Of a stretch of DNA of 62,717 nt, positions 20,595-55,122 are shown piece after piece (positions within the stretch are counted from its first letter, which is position 1; each line of letters starts with the position of its first letter). This stretch comes from Dimargaris cristalligena (Eukaryota). The stretch covers positions 1-62,717 of the forward strand of contig ML002236.1 in the NCBI GenBank assembly GCA_003614675.1, given 5' to 3'. The notes under the pieces were generated by a model. It ran no database searches. It was not told the DNA's origin and saw only the letters and a list, made by a program, of their open reading frames with translations. The translations under genes and the position numbers were made by a program.

Positions 20595-21485
20595 ATGCCC
20601 CATTTGGGCTTCTATTTTCTTATTGACATTCTGATTTCGCGAATTTTATTTCTGCACCACTTTAACGGTTGAATGGGCTGACTCATCCAAAGGTACTACA
20701 TGATGATTAATTAAACTATCCAATAATAGGTACCTAAGTGATGCCAAGAGTTTAACGTATGTCTTTACATATTGTGTGTGGTAGTGTATGGTGTCTTGTA
20801 GAGTAAATATATCTCGCTGGTCGTATATTCCATAGTTAATATTTTTTCTTTACACTAGCCCCACTACGATTGTTAATGGTTAACGACTTATGGTTAGGTA
20901 TTATTTAGTGTGTAATTGTTAAACCATTGGGGACATTTGCCTGAGATTCTGAAAATTGGCCATGCCGATGCTCTCCGGTGGAAAAGTATATCCCATACTG
21001 GGTCAAAAGCTCAGACCGGTCAGGGTATATCACGTGAGTAACCAGGTCTTCTGGTGCTATGCCAGCCACACCACCACAACACACCCTAAACCATGGGTTA
21101 GAAATTGCCGCAGTTGTTGGTAATAAACATATTTCTGTTTTTATATTGGCTTTAGTCAAGAAGCAGCTCTGTGCACCTCAATAGCCTCTGTCCTATTTCG
21201 GCATTTTGGTCTCTTCATTCCGTGGCAAATTGTGATATCTCATTACCAGCCCTAAACTCCCGAAACCAACCAGTTCAACCCCAACCCGAATCGGCCTCTA
21301 CTACTCCCCGCTGGCCCTCATTCCCACCTTACTCGTCCCCAACCCTGACCCTGGCCCATCTCACCTCCCTCCGCCTCGTACGTAGACGCGCCCGGCTCAT
21401 CGCAACTTTTGCATTCCGCCCCACCCCCTTAGTATTCCCAGTTGGGTCTATTGGCTATCGTTGTTTACTGCGCTCGTCGTTCGCC

Positions 21486-24400
21486 ATGGCCCAGTCCTCC
21501 AATCTAGCCAAATTTTTCCAGAGGTTTCAACAGGGGGCTGCTAAACCGGACAAGGCCGCTCCCGCATCCCCCGACTCGGTCGATTCCACCGGCAAGACCG
21601 ACTCCGTCATGGGTCGGTCCACCCCAGCGGACCGCAAACGCCCCCCGGTCATTTCGTCTGACGAGGGCTCCGATAATGAATCCACCGCTCCTGCTACTCC
21701 GAATGGGGGGGTATCGGCCCCAGCTCTCCCGCAGAAAGCCGATGCTAAGCCTAATGCAGGTTTCTTTTCGGCGGCCCCCGTGCCTAAAAAGGCCAAGCTG
21801 GAGAAGCTGGTGAAGAAGGAGAACGGGTCTGGTAGCGATTCGGACGATTCGGTCTACGAACCCGCTTCCGTCGAGGAGGACCTAGCTAATCAAGTGGCGG
21901 ATGCCAAGATCCAAAACGAAAAGGCGTCACCCCAACCGGCCAAGGCGGCCAAATTGACCAAGACCAAGAAACCCGCCAAAAAAGCCGCTGATATTAACCT
22001 GCTGGCCCCCAAATCCGTGATCCAGGAATTCAATACATTAATCGAAACCCATGTTCCTTACGGGGCCATGTGCTACATGTTCGAAAGAGTCGAAGAAACC
22101 ACCAAGCGGCTACTTATTACCGATATCCTGACCCACTTCTTCCGGCGGGTAATTGACAAGGCTCCCCAGGATCTACTTCACTGTGTGTATCTCTGTATCA
22201 ATCGGCTGGCTCCTCAATATGACGGGCTGGAATTGGGTATTGGTGAATCGCTCCTCATTAAGGCTATCGCTCAAGCGACTGGCCGAACTAATGCCAAAGT
22301 AAAGAGCGACGTGGCCCGGTTAGGCGATATGGGTTTAGTGGCTAAGGTAGGCTATTCGTTTTTAACAGCGCTATATTTGGGTGATAGGTATCGTCTATTT
22401 CATATGTCACTCTGACCGCCTATCCGTAGCGTGTGGTAGTATACTGTATAATCTCTGGACCACACGCCCTACTTTATTTTACACATATTTCTGCAGCTAA
22501 TTTATAATCATTTTTGGGGAATTTATGATACTGCACCCATCGCTTAATTTTTGCACATCATTAGGAGAGCCGCAGTAACCAAAAGACCATGATGGGCTCC
22601 CGCCAACTGAAGGTTTCCTACGTCTTTACGGCTCTTAAACAAATCGCTACTGCATCGGGAACCAAGTCTACCACTACCAAAGTGGACAAGATTAAGAGCC
22701 TGCTCGCAACTTGCCAGAATAACGAGGCCAAGTACCTGATGCGGTCCCTTGAGGGTAAACTGCGCATCGGTTTAGCGGAACAAACTGTGCTTATTGCCCT
22801 GGCTCATGCCTTTGCCCTGAATAGCCTAACTAAGCGACTATCGGAGGAAACCTTGGCCGAGGTACTCAAGGATGCCACCGCTACCGTCAAAACGGTCTAC
22901 AGCGAATTGCCGAGTCACAACGTTCTCATTCCGGCTCTTCTTGAGGGCGGTATCCAAAACCTACATGCCACTTGTAAACTGACCGCGGGTATCCCTGTCA
23001 AACCCATGTTGGCTCACCCGACCAAGGCAATTTCGGAGGTACTGGACCGGTTCGAGGGCCAGCTGTTCACCTGTGAGTATAAGTACGACGGAGAGCGGGC
23101 CCAGATCCATCGGTTGGACAACGGCCAGATCACGATTTTCAGCCGCAACTCCGAGAATATGACGGCCAAGTACCCGGATCTGGCCGAAAAGTTACTGCGG
23201 GCGGTGAATCCCCAAACCAAGTCCTTTATCCTTGACTGTGAGGCAGTAGCCTGGGACAAGTCCCAACAAAAGATACTCCCGTTCCAGATTCTCAGCACGC
23301 GGAAACGGAAAGACGTAAAGGAAGAGGATATTAAAGTGGCGGTGTGTATTTTTGCGTTCGATTTGCTGTATCTAAACGGTCGGTCCCTGTTGCGGGAGTC
23401 ACTTGTCCAACGACGGGCCAAGCTGCTGGATGCGTTTCAAACCGTAGATGGCGATTTTCAGTTTGCTAAAGCCGTGGTGGCCACCGAAGTCGAGACCATT
23501 CAGACCTTCTTGGATGAGAGTATTCGAGGTAAGCCGGCCAGGTATCTATAAAGAGTGTACTGTACTATAGGTTAAAATATCCGCTAGGCTAAGTGTCATT
23601 CTACCCCCCCCTTTCTAACTCCGTTCAGAATTTTTTGCCATCCTCCCCCTTTTTGCCCTCCAGATAACTGCGAAGGGCTTATGGTCAAAACCCTAGACGG
23701 CGAGGAGGCTACCTACGAACCGTCTAAGCGATCGCGCAACTGGCTGAAGGTAAATTTTTACAAACTCATTGGACTATCCCATTTTATTGCATTAGTTGAT
23801 AGTGAGAAGGTATCACAGTCCCAATTTAGATGCGTTTGTCGAATTAAATTCTGATATATATTTAGATGCATCGGATATATACTCTTCGCGTACATTCTTG
23901 TTCTAACGTATTTGATGCTCATTACCAACAACTCATATCTACATTACCCCCTCTTAGGTGAAGAAAGATTACATTATGGGGATTGGTGATTCATTGGATC
24001 TCGTCGTAGTTGGAGCCTACCTCGGGCGTGGTAAGCGCACCGGTGTGTATGGCGGATACTTACTGGCCTGCTATAACCCCGATAGTGAACAATACGAGAC
24101 CATCTGCAAGGTAAGCCTCGACGACTGTTAAATTCATTAGCCCCGGCGACACCACCATACTTTTGTTTATTGCCCTGTCGCCATTGTGGGCCACTGGTTC
24201 CCGTTCACAGTTCGCTGAGTTTTCACCATTAGACCCCTTACTAAAAAATACCTCAATATTTTTATGTATAATGCGCTTTTCGCTTTCATAAGATTGGAAC
24301 CGGGTTTTCGGAAGCTGACCTGGAGTCCCACTATAGCGAGTTTAAGGATCTGATTATCAGTCAACCCCGTAGCTACTATTCATTCGGAGACAGTGCCAAA

Positions 24401-31403: not shown

Positions 31404-33793
31404 AAGCATCAACATTTCCCGATCATGATTTCCGCAAATCTAGCCGCCCGTTTACCTTTAGCTATCAAATAATAGCACATCGACTTTTCTACTAGCCATT
31501 ATAGGGCTTAATATCACCACATTTGCTGGGTTGCGTTTTTATATAATATATATGTATGTCAGTACGTGAATTCTAGTTGAAATAATCGATCAACTACTCC
31601 AGATAGTGAATATATTTGCCTTTTAATGACTGGGGTGTCTATTATTTCGGCAAATAAAGCGGTATATATATATACGTGTGTGTGTGTGTCTGTTCGTGCG
31701 CTTGGCCACAGCCAGCTTTTCAGCATGACAAGCCGATGAATGATGCGTTGGTCGTTATAGTAGTCACCTATATACATTCTTTCTTGGCTGTTTCCCAGTA
31801 AAAATCCAGTGTCACCTTGTTCATTTCATAAAACGAGGAATACGGCCTGTCCTTTTCGACTAAATTACTACTGCAAGTGAACCCAGCCAAAATGGTGCCG
31901 ATATGATTCAATACTTCTATAGTAGCTTGAGTAGGTTGGTCAAAACAAGGATGAATCTAGTGTATATTAGACATTAGTTCTTGGGATGGCCACTAACATT
32001 AGATAATAGACTTAATATTGCTTGGGGGGGTATTTGTGGGCGACATACTTTAGGGGGTGGATTATTGACAAAATAGTTGGGGCTAGCGAATTTTGCTGTA
32101 GCCATGTGTAGTGATAGGTGTAGTGAATTAAACTCCCGTTCGGAAAGAAGATGTCATGAGAAGGGTACCTCTGAAAGCCCCCGTATTAAACTGTGATTTC
32201 CGCAAAGTACTAGACGGTATATGCATGCATTGAATCCGAAAGTACTGCTGAAATGCTGCCAAGAATACCGGTGGGCAGCACTACTGTCGCACTAGGATTT
32301 TATTTGAATATTACGCATCGAACCTCCATCTAACATTATATAATTATGCATTTCCTCTTGAATGCCCCGTATGTTGCTGTTGGCACTTTGATTGCACTCA
32401 CTAGGTCTAGGAAGCCGGCCAATGTATAATAATGGGAATGATAAGTGGTATCCGCCATCGTCCCGATTAGTGCCGAATGGAACCAATGTTGTCCATTTGG
32501 ATTTTACGTTTCGAAGCGGCATTCTGTCTGCCACGACCCATGGCAAACCGATGCCTTGAAGCACTAAACTGCCAAGAAATCGATCCCCATAGTTGCCATG
32601 CGAATTCATAGGTTGCCCAATCTTCGAAGAATGTCCATCATTAATTGGGAACGATAAAAGATAGGTCGACCCACTTAGCAGCTTCCAGCCACTACTACTG
32701 GGTCACCAATGGGCATACCATATTCCCGGTCAATTTATCCCGTATTAACGCATTTCCCAATGGCGGTGCCTTGTTTGGGACACCCCTAAAGATCCACCCT
32801 AAGTGTGGCCCCCACATCCATTTATACAATCGATTCTTTAGAATGTGCGAAATTGCAAGTTTGGATGGTGGCTGAGCAAATAGTACCGAGTGGGTAGGAT
32901 GCTGTTGCTTGAATGTTATTCGCGGCGAAGGATCTACCCAGAAGCAACCCCAAAATCAGTGTCGTTAAAAGCGGCCGAATGTTCCATGTGGATACAAAAT
33001 GGTTGACAGTTCATCCAGGGATGGGCTGACCTGGGTTGATATATATTACCTGCCGTTCTCGGGCTGACATGATTGGAAACTACAATATATGCGCGTAAGA
33101 CACTATTGCGGACACGTCAGGCATTGTTCGCCCTGCGCATAAATCGCCAAGTTGGCGGAACATCCCGCGGGTAAGTGGCCCAGGGTAGTCTTGGCATGTA
33201 TGCACTGGGAACCCTTCCCCTCTTAATAACCCCCAGGCGCATATACTCAAGGCACGCCCATACATCGCACCCCCCTCTGGTTCAATGCAGACCGCGGCCG
33301 ATTAAATTTATTCCTGGGTCGCAGTCATGAGCGGATTACAGCCTGCATGTCACTACGCTATGTTCTCTCGCTATCTTCATTTAATGAGAGCCGTGACCAT
33401 GTTTTTACCCCGATTATATGCACATACCCCAGTATATATATATATTGGCCATTCTGGCCTCCTTGCAATAGCCAACTCTACCCTTGCGTGTAATATCCTA
33501 TCGTTTCCCCCCTTTTTCAACCTGTATAGAGAAGCCTGTGCCTTATAGCAGTCCAGTTGGCCTGATCGAGTTCCCTTGTCCGAGCTATCGCCGACACCAT
33601 TCCATTTCTGTGCTTCTTTATTCGCATTCACCAAGCCCATCCGTTAGAAGGTACACGCGTTCTCGGTTGCTTCCACCTATTAACGCTGTGTCTCATTTCG
33701 CCGTGGTGAAACTCCACCAAAGTCAACCTCATTCCATCGCCCAGTTCATCTCTGTCCCATTTACTGGTCTCCACCGCTTTTGTTTTCCATAGC

Positions 33794-36700
33794 ATGGCCA
33801 ATGTGACCATTCTGGAACACGCCTGTCGCCATGTCCATCAGGCCGCTGACCCCTGCCTCTTCATTCGCACCGAGTGTGCCGATGTGAGTGGTATGGTCAA
33901 CTACCTGGAAATCTATTACTGCCAAACGCCGTTACTCCACGGCCTTACTCTAGTCCTGTTTCTTGGCTGGCTCTGCTTCTTGTTCACCTGGGTGGGCATT
34001 TCCGCATCCGACTACTTCTCGCCCAATCTCACCTCGCTGGCCAAATACTTCCACATTCCAGATAGCCTGGCCGGGGTAACTTTGCTGGCATTTGGAAACG
34101 GGGCGCCGGACCTATTCGCCACCTTCAGTGCCATTCGGTCGGGTAGCGGAGCCCTGGCGCTCGGGGAGTTGGTCGGTGCCGCCGCCTTTATCGCTTGTGT
34201 TGTCGCTGGCTGTATGCTTATCCTCTATCCCTTCCAGGTCTCGGTGGTGCCGTTTTTACGGGAAGTAATATTCTTTGCCCTAACTCTTAGTATCACCACC
34301 TGGATTGCCTGGGACCGAAAGGTCACTTTATGGGAGGGGGTGTCCCTTATCGTCTTTTACATCATCTACGTCCTGGTGGTGATGATAAGTACTTGGATGG
34401 AAAAAAAATACTTCACTCGGCGCTTTCTGATCGACCAGGCTCGCGCCGAATACGTTGACTGGGGGCAGGCCCAGGACTTGGACTTGTATAACCAGCTAAC
34501 CAACGCCGGTCACGAATACAACCGCCATGCGGGCCCATCGGTCCGCCTATCCGAATCGGCCTCAGAAAGATCGGCCAGTTCCCCCATAGCCCCTATTATT
34601 CGTATCAATAGTGGCGATTCCATCTCGTCTCAACCGTCCTTACTCATGCATCCCGATGATGAGGACAGCGACAGTGTCCGGAGTGAGTTGGTACCTCTAG
34701 TTCCCAAGTACTCCCCCCATCGATTAAGCCCCGGTGCATTGCCACCAGTCCCACGGTCGCCCATAGATCAGGATGAAATGATCCAGCCCAATGCCTGGCT
34801 TCGGCGTAAATCTCTGCTGAGCGCGATTGAGTTTCGCGATTTCTTATCATCCCTTCCACTTTCCCCGAATGCGCCACCTCTAGCCTCAGATACTGAGCCC
34901 CTGCCCCGTTCCCCCCACCGCCAACCTAATCTCTCCATGTCGGATAATCGGCTTTACCCAACTGCATCATATGCCCCCGATGACCACTATACCCGGTCAA
35001 AAAGTGACGCTGGACCGTCAAATCCTTTGCGCATATCTCGTAATGCGCCATTGGCTGAGCCGTCGACATCCAGCTCTATGGATATTTCCTCACCTATAGC
35101 ACGGAATGGCATCCCCCAATTAATTATTCACCCATCGACACCCAAGTCAAGCGAAGCGTCCTTGAATTCGGCCAGATCCACGTCGCCGGAACCCTCCAGC
35201 CCATCTCCTGCTCATCTGGGACACGATTTAACACCCCCACACCGCAACCGACCAGTGGGTCTTCGACTCGAGATCCCCAGGACCACTTCATCCCGCTCGC
35301 TCCTCTCGGTGGAGAATTCGCTGCTGTCAGCCATTTCCCCACGCTCAGTTGACGATGAGCTTCCCTTGACTACGCCCGGGTTTGTAACCCCCGGGTCCGC
35401 ATATTCGGATTACTTTGGCTCGGCCGAAACCAGCAGCCATCCTTCACCTTCCCTATCACCGTTGCCTAACCACCAACTGCATTCGTCGGAGCCAATGGGT
35501 CAAGTCACTTCGCTGCCACTTCCGAGTCCCTGTCAGCAATCGGATGCATCGCAGGTGCTAAGTCGGGTTCAATCCGACCCCTTTACTCACCGAGTAGCAA
35601 CTTCTCTGGAAACAGGTACCCAAGACAGCCAGTCTTGGTTGCCACGCTCCCCGTACTCGGCCCCAGCGGCGGGTGTCCCTGCGCGCTTCGAAAAGCTTAG
35701 ACTGACGGGATACCATGTGTTATGCCACTGCATCCCTACCATTAGAAGTTGGCCAATGGCCCATTTTTCCCACCGCCTCTTTATTCTCTATACAGCACCT
35801 ATAATTTTAATACTCAACATGACGGTCCCAATTAGCAAATTTATATCTTTTGAGCCCCCAGCCGCTCATGATAATTCATCTCCATATAAGACATCATCTC
35901 AAGGCACAACCGTCGGACCTCCAACACCACTGCCCGCCGAAGTGGTGGAGAATGATCTTTTCAACCGCCAACGATCAGCAACCTATGATTCGGACGAGGC
36001 GGACAGCGCATCCGATACCCCTGCTGAGATGGCTCCCACAATCGGCCCCTGGGTCGATGCCCATCTGCCCCTAGCCCGAGTCGGCCACCTTGCCCGGCTG
36101 CTAGTAATTTCCTTGCGCTGCGTCATTATTCCGGCCTTCATCGCATATGCCTTTGACCATATATTCGAATGGGAAGCACCCTGGGTTATCTATGTTGGTT
36201 TAGCTCTAGGGGCCGTTAGTGGGCTGGCTTTTGCCAGCGTTTCCTTGCCCAAACTGACTCACCAGATAGGGATGTGCTTTCTTCAGCTATGGCGTTTAAT
36301 CCGAACATCGGTCCTTTTCCGACGCCGATCGGAATTTCCATCGAACGATCCATCAAGGGCCACCAGTATCCACTCCAGTACTCCAGTCGGCCGCGAACCT
36401 CGAATTGCACAACATCCTCTGGCCTGGGTGGCCAGGTCGCCCTCTATTCGCACACTTCTTCCCGCGTGTGTGGGGTTTGTTTCGGGGATTAGCTGGGTTT
36501 ACCTGACTGCTGACGAAGTTGTGGCGCTGCTCCAGTCTTTGGGTATCATTTTAAACATCAGCGAGGGTATTTTGGGACTTACGGTGCTCGCTCTGGGTAA
36601 TAGCCTCGGTGATTTCATGACTAATTTAACCATCGCCCGGATGGGGCTGCCGGCCATGGCCTTGTCCGCGTGCTTCGGCGGCCCTATGCTAAACATCTTA

Positions 36701-36952
36701 CTGGGTATTGGTATTTCAGCCACCACTTTGACCTCGACCACTCAGGGTAACTACCCCCTCCCCGTATCCAACACCGTGTTCGTTTCATCCCTGGGCACTA
36801 TTTTCTGCATGTTGGTCATGCTATTTTGGGTGCCTGCCAACAATTACCGAATGACACGTGGTTTGGGGTTTATTCTCATTTTCGTTTATTGTCTCTGCAT
36901 GGGGATCAATATGGTATTGGAGTACAATGATGAAAATCACCACGGTCATTAA
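33794..36952 (+). CDS. Cation/Ca2+ exchanger of the CCX/NCLX (Ecm27-like) subfamily
   Basis: Alpha-1 repeat AGVTLLAFGNGAPDLF, alpha-2 repeat LGLTVLALGNSLGDF, and MALSACFGGPMLNILLGIG. Cys-rich N-terminus (NYLEIYYC) and a very long S/P-rich cytosolic loop. Intronless 1052-aa ORF. Confidence 0.92.
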   Translation: MANVTILEHACRHVHQAADPCLFIRTECADVSGMVNYLEIYYCQTPLLHGLTLVLFLGWLCFLFTWVGISASDYFSPNLTSLAKYFHIPDSLAGVTLLAFGNGAPDLFATFSAIRSGSGALALGELVGAAAFIACVVAGCMLILYPFQVSVVPFLREVIFFALTLSITTWIAWDRKVTLWEGVSLIVFYIIYVLVVMISTWMEKKYFTRRFLIDQARAEYVDWGQAQDLDLYNQLTNAGHEYNRHAGPSVRLSESASERSASSPIAPIIRINSGDSISSQPSLLMHPDDEDSDSVRSELVPLVPKYSPHRLSPGALPPVPRSPIDQDEMIQPNAWLRRKSLLSAIEFRDFLSSLPLSPNAPPLASDTEPLPRSPHRQPNLSMSDNRLYPTASYAPDDHYTRSKSDAGPSNPLRISRNAPLAEPSTSSSMDISSPIARNGIPQLIIHPSTPKSSEASLNSARSTSPEPSSPSPAHLGHDLTPPHRNRPVGLRLEIPRTTSSRSLLSVENSLLSAISPRSVDDELPLTTPGFVTPGSAYSDYFGSAETSSHPSPSLSPLPNHQLHSSEPMGQVTSLPLPSPCQQSDASQVLSRVQSDPFTHRVATSLETGTQDSQSWLPRSPYSAPAAGVPARFEKLRLTGYHVLCHCIPTIRSWPMAHFSHRLFILYTAPIILILNMTVPISKFISFEPPAAHDNSSPYKTSSQGTTVGPPTPLPAEVVENDLFNRQRSATYDSDEADSASDTPAEMAPTIGPWVDAHLPLARVGHLARLLVISLRCVIIPAFIAYAFDHIFEWEAPWVIYVGLALGAVSGLAFASVSLPKLTHQIGMCFLQLWRLIRTSVLFRRRSEFPSNDPSRATSIHSSTPVGREPRIAQHPLAWVARSPSIRTLLPACVGFVSGISWVYLTADEVVALLQSLGIILNISEGILGLTVLALGNSLGDFMTNLTIARMGLPAMALSACFGGPMLNILLGIGISATTLTSTTQGNYPLPVSNTVFVSSLGTIFCMLVMLFWVPANNYRMTRGLGFILIFVYCLCMGINMVLEYNDENHHGH

Positions 36953-40338: not shown

Positions 40339-42793
40339 TCAGTGAAACAATGGGTGCTGAAGAGCCTCCTGGGCCGTAATACGCTCATTGGGATCTAGAG
40401 CAAAACATTGCGTGAGTAGGTCGTATACTTCGGGCGGAAATACGGCTAGACCGCCGGAATTGTATACTTTGACTAGCCTATCAAACGGTATCGCGCTTTC
40501 ACGAACTGTAGGAACGTTCGTAAAGAAGGCCCGGTCTGATAAAGTGCGCATGTAAGGAATATAGGAAATAAGTGTATTGGATAAAGATAGGTTGCAAAAT
40601 ACTTGCAATTAGCCCATGGGTTTGATAACCAATATTCCTCTGGTACTCTGTAATTTTTATTCAAGAAGCAGGGCTGTGCTATCTAGGCTTCGCACTCCAA
40701 GCTTCGAATATCGATACATTTCCGCCCATTCTATTTACAGTGGACCAAAGGTACTTACCGTGAAGGGAGGCCACGCGCTCCATTTCCTTCTTTCCGAACA
40801 GTACCCCCATCTCGAGCAGCGCTTCTTGGTCGTCGGTGGAGTTGAAGAACGGGAAGCGGTGGGTCAGGATACTCAGCATAATAACGCCAACCGACCAGAT
40901 ATCAATTGCCTGGGTCTGGTAAGTCACCTTGAGCAGCACTTCGGGGGCTCGGAATCCCCGAGTTCCAGCGCGATTGGCCCGGACCGAGGGGCGGAGATCG
41001 CGGCGGAGTATGCCGGGGCGCTGGCGGGAGTCCACGATAGTCGGGGTCTGTTCAACGGCGGGCCTACGTGGGTATAGCGAGGTCGAGGCGCCTAGCGAAT
41101 GGGTATGGGGGACGACTTTCTTGCTTTTGTGGTTAAGAGGAGTAGCCGGTTGGGTGGGTTCAGCCTGGCCTCCTCGGGCCCCGGCGGTGTTCATTGTGGA
41201 CCCTCTGACCGCCGGGGACGGCTGAGTCGATTGCGGTGTTTTTTGAGGATGGTAAAAGCGGAGGGAGGATTCCTTGAGACGTTGGCGATAACTCGGTTCC
41301 GATGTTTCGGCAGTTGGTTGGGTTCGACTGACTTGAGGGGTGGAAGTGGTTGAAGAGGCGTCGTAGTTCTGCGTTGGGCCAGTCACGGATTCGTACCGCA
41401 TAGGGGTGGGCGTCTTTAAAGGGTTGGGAAGCGGAAAGGGGGTTATGGTAGAATATGTGCTACGGTCTATGTCCGGGCCAGGGGCGGGGATAGTGGCGGA
41501 TAGACCATTGAGAGCCTGGCTCGTCAGAACTGAGGCACTCCAATTCTGAGCGGATGTAGGCCGGTTGGCTAGGGAATTAGATCCAGTCGATGTTGGTCGC
41601 TGCGGAGTTTTCAGGCCTGTGGGGGGCTCGACCGGATGCTCCATATACTGAGCGAGACCAAAGTCGACCAAAACGCCATGCTGGGTGTCAATATTAAATA
41701 GAAAATTACTCGGTTTTACGTCGCGGTGGAGGATTTTGTGTCGGTGGGTGTATTCCAAGGCACTGAAAAGACAGTATAAATATCTTTTGATTTGCTCCAG
41801 GTTCATGGTGCGGTAATAGTCACGGAAATCGTGGTGCTGGAAGTAAGGAAGCACAACTAGCACCTGGTCTTCGTGACGCAATGCGGTAATTAGGGGTCCT
41901 ACATGGGGATGGCCGCTGTTAACGGGATATGGACGTTCCGATGCCAGGAATGGTGCCAACCGGGAATACCGTCGGGAAATAAATGCAATACGGTTATACA
42001 GGGAAAGGGGTGGGTTAGTCGGCTGCCATACCCAAATTAGCGTGGTTAGGCTGCTCGAAGTGCTCTTTGGTATAACAGAACAACGGTCCGGATAGCTAAT
42101 GGACTTACGTGAGATCTTTGAGGATTTGAATTTCGTTGGCAATACGGGCGGGGCTACTTGTCACATAGATTTTCTTAACAGCGACGTATTTCCTAGGCTC
42201 CCGACTGGGAGGTTGGTGGGAGCATGGGTCGTTGGTCACCTTAGTACGCTTACTCTGGTGCAAAACTGGCCTGTCGTCGGCGGGGGTGGGGGCGACATCC
42301 CAATACCGGTTGTCGTATTTGCTGTAATTGACATCAACGGCCTTGTATACACAGCTAAAGGTACCTGTGTTTAAGTCGAAACGGCGGTAGAGATAGGGTA
42401 GATATGGTTAGTATATATGAAGCGGGAGGGGCACATCGGCGGGTTGGTCCCAGGTGTAAAAGACTCGGACATGACTGGGGCTCCATATAGGTTTGGGCGC
42501 TCGAAGGATAGCCTTCAACCAGCCAACGGAACTGAATGGCCTTCCCAGACGAGGTGGTACTAACCTTCACCAATTTTGCTAATGAGCCGGTACTGTTTGG
42601 CTACGGCAGGGAAGTTCTGTTCGAGGTCTTCCATCTCCTTGAGGACTTCATCACATACGGCTTCCTCCTCGCTATCAGCCTCGCTGGTCTCTTCACTGGG
42701 CAGCTGCGACGAGAGGTGCGGGGTTGAATTGGACCTGGCAGGGCCAGAATATGGCATAGCGGCCTCTGACTCCGAAGGGTTTAGGCAAGACAT
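40339..42793 (-). CDS. CDC7: Cdc7/Hsk1 (DDK) Ser/Thr kinase. Exons 42793-42565, 42364-42109, 41915-40759 and 40535-40339
   Basis: KIGEG|TFSCVYKA, VALKKIYVTSSP.RI.NE, HRDVKPSNFL, LVDFGLAQ, the Cdc7 hallmark RANRAGTRGFRAPEVL, IDIWSVGVI and RITAQEALQHP. Long kinase insert. Confidence 0.96.
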
Positions 42794-44672: not shown

Positions 44673-47600
44673 ATGAGTGAGGCCGTAGGCAAAATAAAAC
44701 ATATTGTTGGCAATGTAAGTCCCCCCCTCCCAATTAAAGGCCGCCGTCCTACGCAATACTGCCCCCCGGAACGTCCTATACCAACCTTTTATGACCACCC
44801 TAGACAGGTTTTTGGATATCCGCCCCATTGCATTAGTAACTTTATCAGTTAGGAAGAGGAATCTGTAATTTTTGATACACGCCATTTGTCTAACTGCTTA
44901 TACTTGTCACCTTGTATGATACATACACCCCACACATCACGCCCTGTCCGTTGCCAGGCGCTGACTCGTAAAGAGACATCACCCGCTGACATTGTGGGCC
45001 TTGTCGACCTAGAAAGCGTTAGGGCCATAGATAACCCGACCAGGGAGAACACGGGTGAGGATTTCTCAGTCACGAGACCACTTTTGAATGAACAGAGCTC
45101 GGCAGCAACAAATTCCGATAGAACCTACGCTCCCCAAGGAAACCCATCGGATGGGGACGGGAAAACCTCGTCAAGCGAACCCACCCAACAACCCGCGGCC
45201 AACTGCAATTCATCTGATACCAATGGTGTAGGGCAATTGCCAGACTGTGATTTGCAATCACCGGCCATACCGCCTGTCGCCCCCAATGACCCAATCTTAA
45301 TCGAAGACAAGAAGGAGCTCGAAAAGCCGGAAACCTCGTCGTTCTGGGAAACATCCAAGGCTGCCACCGTTTTTACCACCATCGACGCATTTCTGCTGCT
45401 TCTCTCCATGGTGGTCTTCATCTCGGTAAGTAATATCCATTATCACTAATGTGGGGGTGTAACCAGCCGGATAGGGCTTTCAATGTTATAAACGCCGGGC
45501 TTTTTTGAAATCTAACTACATTGCCGTGCACCATTTACTACAAATTGTCCATCTGTCCTATTCCAATGCGGGTTTCCGACCGGCAACCCCGAATAGAACT
45601 CGTTTGTTCTTTCTACGGACGCCCACCCGAGGGAGTTTCCGGTCGCTCGAATCATCCTGGATTTAGTTTGCACAATAGCCATTCTTGCGTTCTACGTATT
45701 TTACTGGAAAATGAGGGTAGTACAGGTGGTTTGGTGGACCTGGATCCTGGTTATGGTTTTTGGCATCAGTGTTATCATTGGAACGGTCCTGTACTTTGTC
45801 CTACCTGTCGCTTCGAGCCAGTACCTAGGGGTTAGCTACGCGGTAAGTAACCTCAAACCAGGCGAGCTGTTAATTTTTTTTTAGAAAACCTTATACAACC
45901 TCTATTTATTAACACAGTTATTTGTAATATGCGCCAAGGCAACAGTGGGTACACCTATTGCCAATATATCCACCATATAAGCAGCGAAAGTACTGAATTC
46001 CTAATCACTTCCTAATGTCCGCTCAACTGGACGCTTTTTCCCTCGAACACCATTCTAGTCAACCCTGTATTTCCTCAGGTTCGTTTTACTGGCCGCTGCC
46101 TTGGAAAGACTAGTTGGTCAGTACCACGCGGCTTTCCGACTAGTCGACGATGCCTATAACCAAGTGATTCAAACCAGTAAGTAGCAAATATCCTCGGGTG
46201 TTGTATTGCCACCATTTATTATTAACCTAACTAAAAAATGTAGAATTGTCTGGTCCATAATATATTATGAAATTTTCGACAATTCCATGCCTGTGACCAT
46301 TTACAACAAATACCTTTCTAATCACCGTCACTTCTCGCATGTGTTTTTTGTCGATATTTCGCCCCTATGTTAGTGACTCGACTGTTTTGCTACTGGATGG
46401 CCATTAGCTCTCTCTTACAAACGGTCGTTTACTTCGTTATGCACGCCGACGAGAATCTAAATTTCAGTTTTGGCGATACCATGTACTACGTGATTTTGTG
46501 TCTCATTAACGGCCCGACCGATAGTATCATTGAGGATAATCCCGCCTCCCGGGTGCTCGTATGTTTGTTGATCATTGGCATTTTCGTCGTGATTCCATTG
46601 GAATTTCAAAAAATTAGCGATGTATTTCAGAAGCGGTCTCAGCAAGAGCGTCCAGTCAAACATACATCCGAGAAGAATGTGACCGACATCTTTGTCTGCG
46701 GCTACCTAACCCTCACCAGTGTACAGGCCATTCTCAACAGCATCGATGAGAGCACCTCGCTTCGTAACGTCAAGAAGCAAGTCACCTTCATTGACCATCA
46801 GGCGCTGCCTGAAGAGGTTATGAAACTGATCACCAGTCGTGAATACCGGCACTACGTCGCTTTCATTAAAAGGTAAGCATATCGGGTTTCGAGCTGTAGC
46901 CTCCATCGATGGGGTCCACCCCAACTTCACTATGACTTAAAACCAGCAATCTAACACTTTAACTTGACCATTCTTTTGTGGACCCCCGTTCTCCCTTTGC
47001 ATTCGTTAGAGTTTCTTTTGATTACTCGTTTTTGCTCGAGCTTAACATCCAGGATCTGGATATATTCTTGGTCATTACCGACTATGATTCCACGATCCAC
47101 TCCGCTGAGTATATGGATTCCTATTGTGTTTCGAAGACAATGGTAAGTGCGCCTTTTATTCAGGGAAAACAGCGGAAGATTGACACATACGAACTGGCCA
47201 AGTCTAACCTATCCAAACGCCCCCCCCCCCTTTCCTTCATGGCATTTAATCGGAGTTTTTCTATTTTTATTTTTGCTTAATTTGGGATGCCGTGTACTCC
47301 TATTCCTTGCAAAAACCACCTGATTGGGCCCACACCAGCGCATCTGCCAGTTTTTATGGTTGCAGAACATGAACAATTCAGTTCGCACGCAGGTCATTCT
47401 CCGCTCCTCGATGAAGTACCTCCGCAAATTCTCCAATTGTCAAGTCATTTGTTTGGACGACAGTATAGTAAATATGTTGGCCAGCAATTGCGTGGCGCCC
47501 GGGATGGCGACTCTGCTCTACCAATTGGTCCGCGATAACTTCTCCAGCGTAGCCACCACCTTTATCTCTCTCGTCTTTAACAACTGCAACCTTAAGGAAA

Positions 47601-49887
47601 TTCGCTTATCACTTTTCCCGGCCAAGATCGATCCAAGTTACCAGAGTTACTCAAGCGAAAGTATTTTTTACGACTTTCTTCATTATGGTACCAGCTACAA
47701 GTCCATAGTCGGTGTAAGCGATACCCAACCACCCCCACCCACCCAAGACGACCCCGATCGGAAACTCAACTACTTTCAATACAAATTGGCATCGCATGTA
47801 AACCAAGCCAAGGAGGGAGGGTCCGTGATTTTATTAGAGCGGCATAAGAGAGGCACTGCGACTAATGATGTTGGTCGTGATCCGGAAACGGGAGGAACCC
47901 GGGGGGCTAGGCCTCATATATCCAAACGTAATAGGAATGCCAATATCTTAAAAACCCGAGCACTCAATGACCTGAACTGGGGGACACTCATTTTCCGTTG
48001 TGCTTGGGAACCCCTCCTCAAGAAGTTCAAGGAACTATTTCAGGACACTTCGGTCTACGTAAATGTGGAGGCCTTTGATGGAGACTCATCCTCCAAGTCG
48101 AACTCGAAAACACCGGCCGCCTTTTTTGGACCGTCGTACATTGGTGAATTCTCCAACCCGTTGCCAACTATTACTGACCATTTGATTGTGTGGGACTTTC
48201 AAACCGAATTCGAGCGTGTATCCATTCCGTTACTCAAACGCCTACGTGGATTAGCAGGCGAATCCACTGAGATTCTGTACCTGAACGGTGCTTCCCTTCC
48301 CGCTGATGTACTTGATACAATTAGCCAAATCCCCAAGGTAAGTTATTATATTGACTCAAGGTGCAGTAGAGATGGCCAGCCATGGTTATGAATGGCCGTA
48401 TATATTTTCCCATCAGTACACACTAGGACTGTCCAATTACTTATGTAAACTTGTTTGGTTAATCGATATTTTTGCTACCGCGGCCACAATGGTCCTCTAT
48501 GTGCGATTTAATACTGCATTGTAGGTTCAGCTAATACCGACATCATTGGACTCGGCGAATAACCTTAGCCAAATCAGCATCAAGACTGCCCGGTCGGTCA
48601 TTCTCTTGCATCGGATCCACGAAGAAAGGTGCGTATTTTCGGAGCATCGGCACTTTGGTATACTATGACCGACAATATCAGAATAACTTGATGCCCCAAA
48701 ATTTCTAAGTCATTGGATTAACGGGTTCCTTCGCCCCTGTTCTTAATTATTGCGTTTCGTCCATTTAGATCGGAAATACTGAAAGATTCATCTGTCTATA
48801 TGGCGGAAAACTACATTCGCAGCCGACGGCCTTATATTCCCATCATCAAGCGCTACCCCTGTAATGTAGTGGGTACAAAGAAAAGCATTGTGCGCCAATT
48901 TGCGAAGAATTACTTTGGTAAGTACAGTAGTCGCTATAATGTCGAAAGCGGCTTTCGTGTGCTTTTGCCCGTACTTTGCTCTGCATAACTCCAACCTGTA
49001 GCTACTCATTTCTTAACGGGATATAAGCATCAAAAATTTGGAGTACGTCCCTGAACCGTTGTATTGTTCAATGCAACGGGTTCGGGCTCCAGTAGGACAT
49101 GCCCTCTGAGTAATTAACACATTTCCGTATCCATCGTATTTACTGTGTACGGCCATCCCATTGTCCATCTTACCACATTGTTAATGCGGAATAGAATGGG
49201 TCTATAATACCTGGCGCCCTATTATCGCGGGTGACGCTGTTTTCACTGATATATTCTATTATCTCATGAACAGTCCCCAGCATATCGGAAACATCTCCCA
49301 ACTTCTGTTCCCAACTAAAGGATCTAAGGCCAAATGGTGTTCGATACCGACGAAGTACTTCGCTGGTTGTAAGTATACCATGGTCTATTTTAAAAAACAC
49401 CACGAGTTCCGGGCCATTATCTTCCTCGGTTCTTATTTCCACCCCTCACATACTTGGATACATTGCCCAACTCAGAAGACTTTAAGGGCCTTGATCTATC
49501 AGAGATTGCAATGTTAACCTACTCTTCCTTTACAATCACTCTTCTACTTATTGTATGGGACCTCCAACCAATTTAGACGACTCTCCCTCTGCTACTAAAT
49601 CCGATCGATGGTACGCAGCTGTCTATAACAAACTTATGGAGAAGGGAATCAGTGCAATAGGGGCCACTACCCATGAATCTTACAAGACGAAATGCTTCAA
49701 CCGGATACTGTGTCTAGTTCCACGGACCAATTTGGAGCTGGGGCCAGAGGACCAGATTCTGTGCCTTATTCCGGACTACCTGGACATTGCGAAAATTAGG
49801 GAGTACTTGGCGGCCCCCGATGATACATCGGCGAACAGCTCCTATTCGGCAATAGTTCCCCACTTTACCGAACTTCCGGCCGTATAA
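44673..49887 (+). CDS. Highly divergent Slo/BK(KCNMA/KCNT)-like 6TM channel with tandem RCK domains, about 11 exons
   Basis: Spliced S1-S4 (exons 44958-45425, 45597-45842, 46059-46176). S5-pore-S6 from 46374: FSFGDTMYYVILCLINGPTDSIIEDNPASRVLVCLLII. IFVCG; RCK1 motif VICLDDSIVNMLASNCVAPGMATLLYQL (BK: [28 protein letters not shown]); RCK2 DHLIVW, I.TARSVILL and RPIIAGD. Confidence 0.75.
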
Positions 49888-50959
49888 TGGGCCATTTGCC
49901 CTCTGTAGCATGCTGTGTTTATGCTGCAGGGCGAATCTATTTTTCATTATTTATATAGTTAACAACCAATATGGCCAACTACGGACACTGCTGGACAGCT
50001 CTTAAACTGTGTGTGCCTACTTAGTGAAAGGGTGGAGACTGTGGCTGTTGCTATTAAACTACTATAGTTTTAATACATGCCTTTCGTCAGTGGTATAGCT
50101 CAGCCCAGTTTTAATGCTACCTCATTTTTAATCTAAGAGAGCTAGTCATTAACGCGATGCCGCCCATACTGGCATGTTTCATAGTTGGATAATATCTGCC
50201 ATCCAAGCGCAGTTACCATTTCTGTATCTGACAGTCTAAACCGTCTCTGGGCCGATGATTGGAGTTGACGGGGAGGTATTCCAAGCATTCAGAAAGCGCG
50301 AGCGATATTGGTTATTTTCGATCCCTAAGTGGCTCTAGCCGGACTTGCAACTGTCCAATTAAACAGATAGATACTGGGCGAGACAAGGGTATTATGCAGA
50401 TATATTGTAACAGAGGTCGGGGAAGGTTATAGGATATGAGCGGGCTTGTTCAAGGGAAGGGGAATACAGGATACGAATATATAGGGGCATGGATTGGATA
50501 ACCACTTCCTAGTAGCCATGTGAAGGGAGAGCGTATATGTCCCACTATCCGCCGATGGGGAATATAAATCGTCACAGGCCATAATCGAGCCAGTCCGCCA
50601 CCCTGCAGGCCACCAATGGCAGTCGGTTGAATGCCCCTACTGCTGGATATGCAAAGCACCCTTTAACCTCCTCTACGTTCAGTAGTGTTTACACATGCCC
50701 AAGTCACACACCTCTTTGCTGATACGTCCACATGGCGCTTCTCCACTCTACTACTTACTTACTGGCCAGCAAACGGTATATATATATATATACATTAATA
50801 GACGGGGCGTTTTGTGCTTTTCGCCAGCCGGTTATATTGCCTACATATTAAATCCAGCCCCTGTTCTCTCTCCCACCACCAACTCCAACTTCAACCCTAC
50901 ACCACCGCTACCGTTGGCCCATTTGCCCATTCATTCCCCACCAGCTCATTTCTCCCCCA

Positions 50960-51733
50960 ATGCTCGACGTTCAAGGTAAAGTTGCCGTCATCACCGGCGC
51001 CTCCGCGGGTTTCGGCTGCCGACTGGCCCAGCGCCTCCACGCCAAAGGTGCGCAAGTGGTTTTAGGCGACATTGACGTTTCCGAGGGCCAGGCATTGGCC
51101 GACCAACTCAACCGAGCGCGCCCCGATTCCGCTGTATTTCAAAAGTGCGACGTGTCCCAAATAGCGGACAACCAAGGCCTTTTCGACCTGGCCGTCCGGC
51201 AGTTTGGTACCGCCGATATTATGATCAATAACGCCGGGGTGGCCGAGTCGCACCCCGTTTTCGCCGAGGACTCTACCACTCAGGCCTGGGAAAAGCTCCT
51301 TGCCATTAACTTACAGGCCGTTATTGCGGGCACGCAGTACGCCGTCAACTACTGGCTCCGTCACCGCAAATCCGGGGTGGTGGTCAGCGCCTCCTCCGCC
51401 TCCGCCTTCTCGTTCTTGCCTATTTCCCCCGTTTACGCCGCCACCAAGGCCGCTGTCCTGCACTTTACCTCCAATTGCGCTACCCTGAAGAAACAGGGCA
51501 TTCGGGTCAACGCCATCGCCCCGTTCTTCTCTAATACTAACCTTGTTAAGCAGGGTCGCCAGGACAATAAGCACTTCGACCGACTTGTATCCGGAGCCAA
51601 GATGGTGGACCCGGAAATGGTGGTTGATGCCTATATGCGCTGTATCGAAGACGAGTCCCTAGCTGGCGAAACCTTATCCATCTTGCCTAAATCTGGTATC
51701 CAGATCTTCCATCCCTACTACCCCAAACTGTAG
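50960..51733 (+). CDS. Classical short-chain dehydrogenase/reductase, 15-hydroxyprostaglandin dehydrogenase-like
   Basis: TGASAGFG Rossmann motif, CDV, NNAG, catalytic YAATK and IRVNAIAP. Ends in -PKL. Confidence 0.9.
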   Translation: MLDVQGKVAVITGASAGFGCRLAQRLHAKGAQVVLGDIDVSEGQALADQLNRARPDSAVFQKCDVSQIADNQGLFDLAVRQFGTADIMINNAGVAESHPVFAEDSTTQAWEKLLAINLQAVIAGTQYAVNYWLRHRKSGVVVSASSASAFSFLPISPVYAATKAAVLHFTSNCATLKKQGIRVNAIAPFFSNTNLVKQGRQDNKHFDRLVSGAKMVDPEMVVDAYMRCIEDESLAGETLSILPKSGIQIFHPYYPKL

Positions 51734-52479: not shown

Positions 52480-54150
52480 TTATGAGTTACTGGTCAGTGA
52501 CGGGTTAGCCGGGGGTGCCAATCCGTGAGTGCGGATGCTGAGGGCCCCGGCGCCCTGGGTGAGGCATGCGTCGGATTTGGTTTTGGCGAGGGGGGCCCCG
52601 GGAAGGGAGGTTGCCTCGGTTCCCATACGCTTGGCCGAGTTGGTGGTAGGCAGGATGCCGGAGTGGGAGCGGGGCAGGTCCAAAAGATGGCCCATGCGCT
52701 GAACCTTGACCTGTAGATAACGGTTAGCCTCCGCCATGACCCGGGAGGCGCTGGAGGGCGTAGCGGGACTGCCCGGTTGGGCGGACCGCGGGGCGGAATT
52801 CGGGTTCGAGAAGGTAGCCCCAGCCCGGCGGGGCTGCTGGGTCTGGTTGGGCAGTGGATACAGGTGTTTAGACGACGATAAATGGCTATGCACTCCGTCA
52901 CCGGGGGACAGCGGCCAGATTAGGGTGGAGGGACTGGATACGTTCGACGAGGCGGAATTGAGAGAAGTGACCGACGCGAACCGGTTCAGTTCCTTTGGGA
53001 GGGAGTTAGTGGGGGTTACAGAAGCCAGTTCAAAAGCGGAAAGGGGGGTTTGTGGGGCCTGCTTAGTATCCTCAGTCAACCGGAGAGAAGCTAGCTCGAG
53101 GGCGTCGGCGGGACTGTCTAGTCCGGAGTTGAATTGGGGACTCGGGCGGGGGGAAATATCGCCACTCGAATCGACCAGTAATTCCTGGTCCATATCATCT
53201 AGGGCCCCGGGGGTATCGTTCCACCAGCGGGGGATCATGGGTACCCGCTCGTCGACTAGGATCCCGGCATCCTGAATCTGCTGGATCTTATCGGGGTTAT
53301 TCGTCAACAGGCGAATGCGATTCAGCTCCAAGTCCCGGAGCATGGCGTAAGCCACATCATAGTTGCGGGCGTCGGCGGGGTGATTGAGCATCAAATTGGC
53401 AGTAACTGTATCGTGGCCCATGTCCTGAAGATTATAGGCGCGCAACTTGTCCATCAAACCAATCCCGCGGCCTTCCTGGCGAAGATAAATGACGACACCT
53501 CGCCGTTCAATCTGCATCAGGCGCATGGCCTCGGCCAGTTGGTAGCCACAGTCACAGCGGACTGAGGACACAGTCTCGCCGGTAAAGCATTCCGAGTGAA
53601 TACGGACCAGGGGGGCTGGGCCGGTGAAAGCATCGTCGCCATCAGCTTCGAGTATCTCTGATGAAGGGGAGCCAGAGTGAGCCAAGGATCCTGCCTCAGG
53701 ATTCGGCCGGGGCTTGGCCCCACGGATCAGCCGGTCGGCTTCTGTTTCGTCGGCCCGGGCCTCGTTCAACGAAAGACTATCGATATCATCGCCAAACATA
53801 ATGGCCAGATGCTCCTTCTGGTCCGCCGAGTTACGGTAGAGGTACAGGTAGAACTGGCCATCCGGATAAGGGATACGGGCACGGACTTCGCACCAAACGC
53901 GAACGGGGTCAGCGCGGGTAGCGGTGGCAGTGGGACTGGTGCTGCTTGGCAGGGAGGAGGTGGCTGACGGAGTGCGGGCCAACTCGGGGGGAGTAAGCAG
54001 GGGGATTTCCACGGGGGCCGCCCGCTCACCCAGGGAATCAGTGGTCTGGTTCATCGACTCGAGCAGCTTAGGCAAGATGTGGGTGAGAGAGTTGTCGCTA
54101 CCGGCCGGGGAGTCGCAGCAGCAGTGGGGGTTGGCTTGATGAGGAACCAT
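52480..54150 (-). CDS. RIB1: GTP cyclohydrolase II (riboflavin biosynthesis) with long low-complexity extensions
   Basis: LVRIHSECFTGETVSSVRCDCGYQL (Zn-binding Cys), YLRQEGRGIGLMDKLRAYNLQDMGHDTV.AN, RLLTNNPDK and YLQVKVQRMGHLL. Confidence 0.96.
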   Translation of the reverse strand: MVPHQANPHCCCDSPAGSDNSLTHILPKLLESMNQTTDSLGERAAPVEIPLLTPPELARTPSATSSLPSSTSPTATATRADPVRVWCEVRARIPYPDGQFYLYLYRNSADQKEHLAIMFGDDIDSLSLNEARADETEADRLIRGAKPRPNPEAGSLAHSGSPSSEILEADGDDAFTGPAPLVRIHSECFTGETVSSVRCDCGYQLAEAMRLMQIERRGVVIYLRQEGRGIGLMDKLRAYNLQDMGHDTVTANLMLNHPADARNYDVAYAMLRDLELNRIRLLTNNPDKIQQIQDAGILVDERVPMIPRWWNDTPGALDDMDQELLVDSSGDISPRPSPQFNSGLDSPADALELASLRLTEDTKQAPQTPLSAFELASVTPTNSLPKELNRFASVTSLNSASSNVSSPSTLIWPLSPGDGVHSHLSSSKHLYPLPNQTQQPRRAGATFSNPNSAPRSAQPGSPATPSSASRVMAEANRYLQVKVQRMGHLLDLPRSHSGILPTTNSAKRMGTEATSLPGAPLAKTKSDACLTQGAGALSIRTHGLAPPANPSLTSNS

Positions 54151-55122
54151 AGTCACAGTGTTACTGTTGAGAGGTACGGGGAAGGGTTATAGAAGTCTAT
54201 GGAGGGACAATGGCCAAAGAACGTCGTGCGGATCGGTCGTAATACTAGTACGCTAGTAAAATATATTAAATAACGAGTCGAGTTGCTGGAACACGGCACA
54301 CGGATTTGCGGTGAGTCTGACTAGGTTAGCTGAGCGTGGTGTAAAGCACTAGGAGGTCGAGACGGGAAGCGAAGACAAAGAGGGCTAGTGAGAATAGAAT
54401 AAGCTAGACAGCGTTCAGGACTGTATAAGAAATGCTACACGAAGGAATGCCCGTGTAATAATACCGGCGAGTGAGATAGACGAAGAAAGACTGGCGTGGG
54501 TCGCCGGATATATAGATATTCAGGGTTAATTAACCACAGTCTAAACTATAGATATTAGCTAGGGACAGGAATGAAGAAAAAGGGAAAGTGACTACTAAAG
54601 GGTCCAGGGAAAGGGATGTAATAATACAGTACAGGAGGTAGGTAGGAGACCAGGGTGGTCTTGGAAAGGAGTAGAGAGCACGAAAGTTATATAGGGTAGA
54701 AAAGAGTACAAATGGCCAAGGTGTAGTAGAATAGGTAGACTGGCTAAATTAACTAGTATGTTATATACTAGGCTAGTGTGCAGGAAAAGAGAGCGTGGCT
54801 CGGTAAAAGGAAGCAGCAGCAAATGAGCCTTAAGGGGAAATAGGGTTAATATAAGTGTGGCGGGGGACACGCTAAAGTGAGGTTCAGCCGACCAGGTGGG
54901 ACGGCAATTGGGCCTATTAAATATATATGAATCAGCTGGGGGAAAAGTTGACTGCTAAAGGCTGATGATATATCCCAAAGCGAATATGGTATATACTCAA
55001 GAAGGGAGGTCACGTGTAACAAATTGTAAAGGTGCCAAATGTTGCTGACAATAACAGCAAAAGACGAGTGGTTGGACTAGTAGAGCAAGAGAAGACACCC
55101 CTGCGATTACTAATAGAACTGG

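Follow-up and report, generated by a model that had tools for sequence, protein, structure and literature searches.

A Slo-type channel gene of Dimargaris cristalligena carrying a conserved N-G-P-T loop in place of the potassium filter motif

To our knowledge, every Slo-family channel that has been studied functionally is a K+ channel. Dimargaris cristalligena is a mould-parasitic fungus, and a stretch of 62,717 nucleotides of its DNA (GenBank assembly GCA_003614675.1, contig ML002236.1, positions 1 to 62,717 of the forward strand, hereafter the window) contains a gene, at 44673..49887 on the plus strand, whose predicted product has the architecture of this family without its K+ signature. It is highly probable that the gene encodes a real and constrained protein of the Slo family, with a pore loop devoid of GYG that defines a clade of its own. 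This article compares the protein with the closest described channels, follows its pore loop through the relatives found in other fungi, and weighs the ways in which such a loop could be understood.

Slo1, or BK (KCNMA1; also Slo3/KCNU1), is the nearest described system, being both the best profile match (Aplysia Slo1, 1.9e-20) and the best structural match (Foldseek, 3.5e-23). The parts follow each other in the same order in both proteins, including a block of the type VICLxxxxxxxLAxxxxAPGxxTL in RCK1, and the inter-subunit packing predicted here, with the pore helix on S6, is likewise that of Slo1. The D. cristalligena protein differs from Slo1 in being without TVG[YF]GD, the aspartate run of the Ca2+ bowl and the S0 segment, and in having kept one arginine of S4. 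Slo2.2 (KCNT1, Slack) shows a different set of likenesses: like our protein, it has six transmembrane (TM) helices, carries little charge in S4 and lacks both S0 and a Ca2+ bowl. It is also the best single-sequence match in the PDB for P0002, one of the two database records of the gene (3.1e-4). However, the profiles favour Slo1 over Slo2.2, both for the relatives in the order Dimargaritales (1.9e-20 against 2.2e-6) and for the wider family described below (4e-19 against 7e-15), and TVGYGD is retained in Slo2. The nearest mention in the literature is one sentence of a preprint on the Marchantia SLO channel, which notes "Slo2-like" channel genes for fungal species (bioRxiv 10.1101/2021.06.01.446568).

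Two systems outside the Slo family are also instructive. CASTOR carries an RCK ring and no TVGYG; taken for a K+ channel for a long time, it has since proved to be selective for Ca2+ and regulated by it (PMC6697748). CASTOR, POLLUX and DMI1 resemble the present protein in outline, as tetrameric channels with an RCK gating ring and no TVGYG, the tetramer being a predicted one in our case; they nevertheless belong to a different family, the CASTOR filter being given in the same account as ADS/AGNHA and its predicted TM segments as four, against six here (PMC6697748). KtrAB has a noncanonical filter with one conserved glycine in each P-loop, and translocates K+ very selectively with Na+ present (PMC6888753). 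KtrAB and TrkAH share with our protein a one-glycine pore loop lying under an RCK-type cytoplasmic ring (PMC6888753). KtrB, in contrast, contains four pore repeats per chain and relies on a separate RCK-ring protein, whereas the D. cristalligena chain has one pore domain and a fused tandem of RCK domains.

Gene structure, fold and pore loop

The taxonomy of D. cristalligena places it in the Kickxellomycotina, order Dimargaritales. Its channel gene is intron-rich and complete from ATG to stop, and is represented by two database records, P0001 (1005 amino acids, 12 exons) and P0002 (1037 amino acids, 11 exons), both annotated merely as hypothetical protein. Each record is reproduced exactly by joining the exons of the window by coordinate, and the introns are all GT..AG. 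The two gene models differ in two places only, namely the acceptor of the third exon (45597 in P0001, 45726 in P0002) and the segment 47798-48022, which is an optional intron. The acceptor at 45726, used by P0002, leads to the loss of a membrane helix bearing a near-invariant aspartate (D192). This helix lies in the longer third exon of P0001 and is common to the relatives in the clade alignment, and P0001 is therefore taken for numbering throughout. The optional intron belongs to P0001, has weak sites (GTAAAC..CTCAAG), and falls within the disordered linker between RCK1 and RCK2.

The pore exon, 46374..46872 on the plus strand, encodes the end of S5, the pore helix and the filter-equivalent loop, and continues through S6 into RCK1, of which it includes the opening strand and helix. 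Its start at 46374 is genuine, with AG at 46372-46373, phase 1, and a frame continuous with that of the preceding exon, and the exon is 100% identical between the two D. cristalligena database records, which lie on different contigs, of 62717 and 72737 bases. An initial annotation of this DNA had flagged the interval 46374-46625, which is the first half of the exon. Positions 46376-46627 of the plus strand translate to TRLFCYWMAISSLLQTVVYFVMHADENLNFSFGDTMYYVILCLINGPTDSIIEDNPASRVLVCLLIIGIFVVIPLEFQKISDVF, and the pore helix, the LINGPTD sequence and the subsequent IIEDNPASR are all found where that annotation had placed them. A search of the gene span for a G[YF]G exon elsewhere gave five matches over all frames, each of them out of frame or adjoining stop codons. 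A mutually exclusive GYG exon is thus ruled out, there being no usable one in the gene span, and a sequencing error is ruled out by the identical exon in two records together with the presence of the motif in six species.

The Slo-superfamily architecture of six TM helices, a pore and tandem RCK domains had been proposed in the initial annotation, and is confirmed at the level of sequence comparison and structure prediction by Pfam, by an AlphaFold model, by Foldseek and by profile search of the PDB. The AlphaFold model was built on a 26-row alignment, with a mean predicted local distance difference test score (pLDDT) of 61, mostly 70-90 in the membrane domain, and a predicted template modelling score of 0.53. 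The first 143 residues or so are disordered in it; they are followed by six TM helices, with a pore helix, and by two Rossmann-like domains, which are built of alternating strands and helices and joined by a disordered linker. The order within the single chain is a voltage-sensor-like S1-S4, S5, the pore helix, S6, and then the two fused RCK domains. Foldseek returned at least 500 matches of the model in the PDB and, among the matches listed (to rank 46), every one is Slo1 or Slo2; the identity to solved Slo chains is 13-15%. A phmmer search of the PDB with P0002 alone placed Drosophila Slo (1.1e-3) after Slo2.2, and the profile of ten Dimargaritales homologues matched human Slo1 (8e-18) and Slo3 (1e-10) in addition to the Aplysia and Slo2.2 chains cited above. 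Positions 280-863 of this profile align to the isolated Slo1 gating ring, 3u6n, with an E-value of 3.7e-20. On the full protein, Pfam reports Slo-like_RCK (E 1e-8, 35.3 bits for a cut-off of 24, residues 707-821), and nothing at E<=0.1 beyond this domain and BK_channel_a. The absence of a Slo/RCK fold had been named in the initial annotation as an outcome that would speak against its reading; it was looked for, and the fold is Slo by profile and by structure comparison alike.

The look-alikes of the model in the ESM Atlas are BK-type clusters. The Zoopagomycota BK-like cluster among them, with 65 members, has Ion_trans_2 in 28%, whereas the figure is 91-99% for the listed BK clusters of oomycetes and others. 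The difference suggests that automated pore detection fails across the fungal Slo-like family, and fits a degenerate pore. Membership in three other families was considered and ruled out. No Castor_Poll_mid hit appears in Pfam at E<=0.1 and the filter differs, which excludes CASTOR/POLLUX/DMI1; a cyclic-nucleotide-binding domain is not among the Pfam hits at E<=0.1, which excludes CNG/HCN; and Trk/Ktr/HKT, with their four repeats, are excluded by the one pore helix and loop that the modelled chain contains.

The voltage-sensor-like domain, S1-S4, is encoded by 45354..46136 (+) and corresponds to residues 147-278 of P0001, with introns at 45426-45596 and 45843-46058. Its four helices in the AlphaFold model span residues 147-177, 186-209, 213-238 and 250-278, with a pLDDT of about 70-90. 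The helices of the pore domain span 283-314, 324-337 and 348-381, with a loop at 338-347. The second of these is the pore helix, FGDTMYYVILCLIN, encoded by 46469..46510 (+); it is a helix by DSSP in the model and aligns to the pore helix of Slo1. The third is the inner helix S6 (46541..46642, +), delimited by the model and the clade alignment. The filter-equivalent hexapeptide N337-G338-P339-T340-D341-S342, encoded by 46508..46525 (+), stands opposite TVGYGD without a gap.

The K+ signature T-V-G-[YF]-G-D is absent, as the initial annotation had reported, and its place is taken by N-G-P-T-D-S in ungapped alignment, or by I-N-G-P-T-D with a shift of one residue. Both glycines of GYG and the tyrosine are missing in either register. 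The initial annotation had set INGPTD opposite TVGYGD, and of this proposal the replacement of the filter holds, whereas the residue pairing does not. In every ungapped alignment, whether to GYG-bearing channels, to Aplysia Slo1 or of profile to profile, TVGYGD is opposite N-G-P-T-D-S, a register that puts the invariant glycine of the N-G-P-T-bearing clade (hereafter the NGPT clade) on the valine of TVGYGD. The pairing with INGPTD was seen only where phmmer aligned Drosophila Slo with a gap, and this one alignment misplaces the invariant Arg351. As judged from these alignments, the register of the filter is uncertain by one residue, and the INGPTD pairing is probably off by one. Near-invariant acidic residues lie at the outer side of the loop (D326 and D346) and at the inner end of S6 (E368), and these outer-mouth and inner-mouth positions suggest a pathway for cations.

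The voltage sensor and the gating ring depart from Slo1 as well. The S4 of Slo1 carries an arginine series, RxxRxxR. The S4 of the D. cristalligena protein reads LYFLRFVLLAAALER, in which R259 is the single arginine conserved in the clade, and S0 is missing, the model having six TM helices. RCK1 is encoded by 46679..47533 (+; residues 394-567; introns 46873-47009 and 47143-47338) and consists of alternating strands and helices in the model, and RCK2 by 48179..49812 (+; residues 708-981; four introns), as supported by Pfam Slo-like_RCK and the model. The Asp-rich Ca2+ bowl of Slo1 we take to lie in RCK2, in the stretch from the IPII strand to the P..(A/S)G(D/E) motif. No Asp run is present between these two motifs in the NGPT clade, the bowl having been placed by eye from its flanking motifs, as HMMER left the stretch unaligned to Slo1; nor is one seen by eye at the bowl position in the wider family. 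The equivalent stretch of the D. cristalligena protein, KRYPCNVVGTKKSIVRQFAKNYFEWVYNTWRP, is basic rather than acidic, and within the C-terminal 45% of the protein no window of 10 residues has more than 4 D/E, the richest one lying away from the bowl position. The name "calcium-activated potassium channel" is an automatic label on some of these fungal records. Its "calcium-activated" half is unsupported by the sequences, because they have no Asp run at the bowl, one S4 arginine and no S0. The D. cristalligena gene and its relatives in fact meet neither half of the label, having no K+ signature and no Ca2+ bowl, and such names are best treated as misleading.

Conservation in the Dimargaritales and a wider fungal family

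The 165-residue pore exon was compared by HMMER with 1.84 billion representative proteins at E<=1e-3, and 20 matches were obtained. These are the query itself, eight Dimargaritales proteins, seven other non-GYG proteins of fungal type, and four short GYG channels from metagenomes. A word-indexed search, with a 13-sequence full-length alignment, gave only the two D. cristalligena records, the relatives probably being crowded out by low-complexity words. The addition of cluster members to the HMMER matches brought the Dimargaritales to 14 protein records from six species, D. cristalligena, D. verticillata, D. xerosporica, Dispira simplex, Dispira parvispora and Tieghemiomyces parasiticus. All 14 records carry NGP[T/S], as NGPT in 13 and NGPS in one, and none has GYG.

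Conservation was scored at the protein level on ten Dimargaritales homologues, which share 21-35% identity with the D. cristalligena protein. The top-ranked window of eight residues is LCLINGPT; its score is 0.91, whereas the 658 well-filled columns average 0.49. Asparagine, glycine and proline of the filter are present in 10/10 homologues and threonine in 9/10, and N337, G338 and P339 fall within just 15 invariant columns of the alignment. The other invariant columns include R259 in S4, R351, V354 and P366 in S6, and G401 in the first RCK strand; F260 of S4 and E368 and K371 of S6 are near-invariant. The replacement pore loop is, on this alignment, a product of constraint and not of decay or chance, since the motif is the best-conserved 8-mer among relatives sharing only 21-35% identity. 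The initial annotation had thought of orthologues keeping GYG as evidence against itself; the relatives are without GYG, and the replacement motif is their most conserved part.

The loss of GYG extends well beyond this order. A profile running from the pore to RCK1, made from seven of the more distant HMMER matches, recovered 26 proteins of a wider set. The Chytridiomycota are represented in the set by Blyttiomyces, Chytridiales sp., Phlyctochytrium, Irineochytrium, Zopfochytrium and Chytridium, and the Kickxellomycotina by Coemansia, Smittium, Furculomyces, Dispira and Dimargaris, while an aphelid member, Amoeboaphelidium, comes from the HMMER search with the pore exon. GYG occurs in 0/29 proteins of the wider family, the single glycine is kept in 29/29, and [ST]GL[STQR] is found in 26/29; in its place the aphelid has SGS and two Dimargaris proteins have VGP. 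T-V-G-Y-G-D pairs, ungapped, with [ST]-G-L-[ST]-[ST]-[DK] of this family. An hhalign comparison of the NGPT clade with the wider family gave a probability of 99% and an E-value of 2e-18, and was ungapped through the pore. No member from the Mucoromycota or Dikarya appears in the hit lists of the exon HMMER and wider-family searches, which does not by itself demonstrate their absence from those groups.

The residue opposite the aspartate of GYGD follows the taxonomy. It is lysine in nearly all chytrid members (SGLSTK, with one SGLSTG) and aspartate in Coemansia, Smittium, Furculomyces and Dispira (TGLSSD, TGLTSD, SGLSTD). This chytrid lysine and Kickxellomycotina aspartate represent, in the aligned sequences, a clade-wide reversal of charge adjoining the pore loop.

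A maximum-likelihood tree was computed on an alignment of 31 rows by 326 columns; three GYG channels served as outgroup, and near-duplicates and several Coemansia rows were omitted. The NGPT clade is monophyletic (support 100/100) on a long stem of 2.22 changes per column, and the [ST]GL clade has a support of 95/97, its internal branching agreeing with the species groups. A third lineage consists of the Dimargaris VGP pair, and the tree leaves the branching order of the three lineages undecided. Two long branches within the NGPT clade are flagged as unreliable. Judging from the tree and alignments, the NGPT motif is the signature of a clade specific to one order, which lies within or next to a fungus-wide Slo-like family lacking GYG, and the Dimargaritales carry members of the general family along with their own expanded NGPT subclass. 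Paralogues in this order are P0007, P0010 and P0016 of D. verticillata and P0023, P0024 and P0041 of Dispira simplex. P0016 and its D. xerosporica counterpart P0035, each of about 1555 amino acids, have a filter that reads T-V-G-P-N-D and differ from the NGPT clade at the position of the Ca2+ bowl, where their sequence, NPDEFLLDVEDQF, is partly acidic. The lineage of these two proteins may be an intermediate form.

The initial annotation had considered the gene a candidate for an undescribed system of fungal origin. The fungal origin is borne out, within the Kickxellomycotina, and the filter variant keeps its interest; the scope of a lone gene is too narrow, as the clade and the wider fungal family share the loss of GYG. 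The literature search found, in the titles and abstracts listed, no account of a fungal Slo-like family without GYG, with the reservation that the list of fungal Slo2-like genes in the preprint cited above could include members. None of the papers listed linked ion or potassium channels to any of the genera Dimargaris, Smittium and Coemansia. The fold and the family are known, and what appears to be undescribed is the replacement filter at two levels, [ST]GL[ST] across fungi and NGPT in the Dimargaritales.

A proposed mechanism and its alternatives

The best explanation overall, to which we assign a probability of roughly 60%, is that of a constrained Slo-type channel with a rebuilt pore loop, assembled as a tetramer gated by its RCK ring and altered in its selectivity. 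Four chains would surround a central pore, and their eight RCK domains would form the gating ring, in which the binding of a cytoplasmic ligand would open S6. The gating ligand would be something other than Ca2+ at a Slo1-type Ca2+ bowl. The sequence N-G-P-T-x-(D/E/S), in place of TVGYGD, would most likely line a functional pore whose ion preference has changed. A four-site carbonyl filter is impossible for this loop because both glycines and the tyrosine are gone, and a working pore is the most likely outcome because the loop is the most strongly conserved element of the protein. Ion conduction, by a homotetramer or by a heterotetramer with paralogues, is graded by us as likely, and a preference for something other than K+, as in a non-selective cation channel or one permeable to divalent ions, as a possibility at slightly under even odds. 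The sequence does not decide the permeant ion, because the precedents of CASTOR and KtrAB point in opposite ways. Nor, for the same reason, does it choose among the functions suggested in the initial annotation, namely a non-selective or Ca2+-permeable channel or a silent subunit.

The tetramer itself was approached by structure prediction. ESMFold2, given four copies of residues 280-385, returned a median score of 0.32, compared with 0.00 for the best control. The mark applied to this score is reached by 21/30 proteins solved as pairs of one chain and by 0/23 solved as single chains, and among eukaryotic proteins by 17/29 and 0/30, respectively. The tetramer runs agree in at least 76% of contacts, with a pLDDT of at least 60. 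The predicted interface sets the pore helix and loop, 325-339, against S6 of the neighbouring chain, 351-366, which is the standard packing of K+ channels. Tetrameric structures of Slo channels exist, and the pass may reflect their influence on the predictor.

Several observations weigh against the altered-selectivity channel and have to be set beside it. The tetramer score is barely at the mark, one run falling to 0.21, and it derives from single-sequence input and from a calibration on two copies and not four. The Pfam match to BK_channel_a is below its gathering score (E 5.3e-5, 23.9 bits for a cut-off of 26.8, residues 537-568), and Ion_trans_2 is weak on the pore exon alone (E 0.19). The pore loop is modelled with moderate confidence, the mean pLDDT being 70 for residues 331-340 and 60 for 341-350. 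The long branches within the NGPT clade, of 0.9-2.9 changes per column, would also suit a relaxed constraint outside the pore. We know of no characterised tetrameric cation-channel filter in which a proline directly follows the conserved glycine. Additionally, KtrAB has one glycine per P-loop and a very high selectivity for K+, so a preference for ions other than K+ is not established (PMC6888753).

This last observation leads to the first alternative, which we consider unlikely, namely that the channel still prefers K+ and that its loop, with a single conserved glycine, works like the P-loops of Trk, Ktr and HKT. The required glycine is invariant in 14/14 Dimargaritales records and in 29/29 proteins of the wider family, and in the ungapped register the S/T that precedes it in the wider family matches the threonine of TVGYG. 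The motifs xGL[ST] and xGP may resemble single P-loop sequences of the superfamily of K+ transporters (SKT). The same ungapped register, however, puts the glycine on the position of valine and not on the first glycine of GYG, and the Dimargaritales clade has asparagine at the threonine position and then a proline after the glycine. The chain is moreover of the homotetramer type, and not a four-repeat SKT chain.

The second alternative would make the protein non-conducting, either as a regulatory or sensor subunit of conducting paralogues, or as an RCK ligand sensor with a membrane anchor. The Dimargaritales do have several paralogues that could co-assemble, a proline at this point of the loop might block or distort the pore, and the charge of the voltage sensor is down to one conserved arginine. 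We nonetheless hold a silent pore to be improbable, as neither the location of the most conserved 8-mer in the pore nor the invariance of R351, V354 and P366 in S6 would be expected of it, and as the paralogues found are all without GYG, which leaves the family with no known canonical partner that would conduct. A decaying paralogue, or an artefact of assembly or annotation in which the odd filter has no function, is very improbable and largely refuted: the two gene models do disagree at two places (45597/45726 and 47798-48022) and the terminal branch is long (0.93), yet the frame stays open throughout the 11-12 exons, with GT..AG introns between them, two records on different contigs agree exactly over the pore exon, the motif is kept in six species and 14 records, the gene span has no alternative GYG exon, and the 21-35% identity excludes cross-contaminated copies of one sequence.

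The explanation as a channel of altered selectivity can be extended to the family as a whole, as a tentative proposal that we regard as possible and well short of probable. In early-diverging fungi, namely chytrids, aphelids and Kickxellomycotina, a family derived from Slo1 may long have ceased to act as a K+ channel and may now be a distinct RCK-gated class, for example Ca2+-permeable or non-selective, with the filter [ST]-G-L-[ST]. The mycoparasitic Dimargaritales would then have radiated a further subclass, with a proline-containing N-G-P-T filter of new selectivity. Should the replacement loops conduct, they would represent natural experiments in which the scaffold of a K+ channel has been re-tuned to another ion. 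This would be a parallel to plant CASTOR/DMI1, misread as K+ channels until they were recorded, and would add a ligand-gated pathway for the entry or release of cations to fungal lineages whose channel repertoire is scarcely studied. That the family has expanded to several paralogues in obligate mycoparasites points to a possible connection with haustorial physiology.

Neighbouring genes in the window

A frame of 1080 amino acids with two Na_Ca_ex domains (Pfam E 4e-50) lies at 33710-36952 on the plus strand, some 8 kb upstream of the channel gene, and the proximity of these two cation-transport genes is probably coincidental. The remaining neighbours, recognised by Pfam, are a nucleosome assembly protein (8063-9517, minus strand), an ATP-dependent DNA ligase whose N and M domains fall in two adjacent frames, probably split by an intron (21156-23551, plus strand), a protein kinase (40679-42160, minus strand), a short-chain dehydrogenase (50852-51733, plus strand) and a GTP cyclohydrolase II (52480-54186, minus strand). 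From the nucleosome assembly protein to GTP cyclohydrolase II, these are ordinary fungal housekeeping genes.

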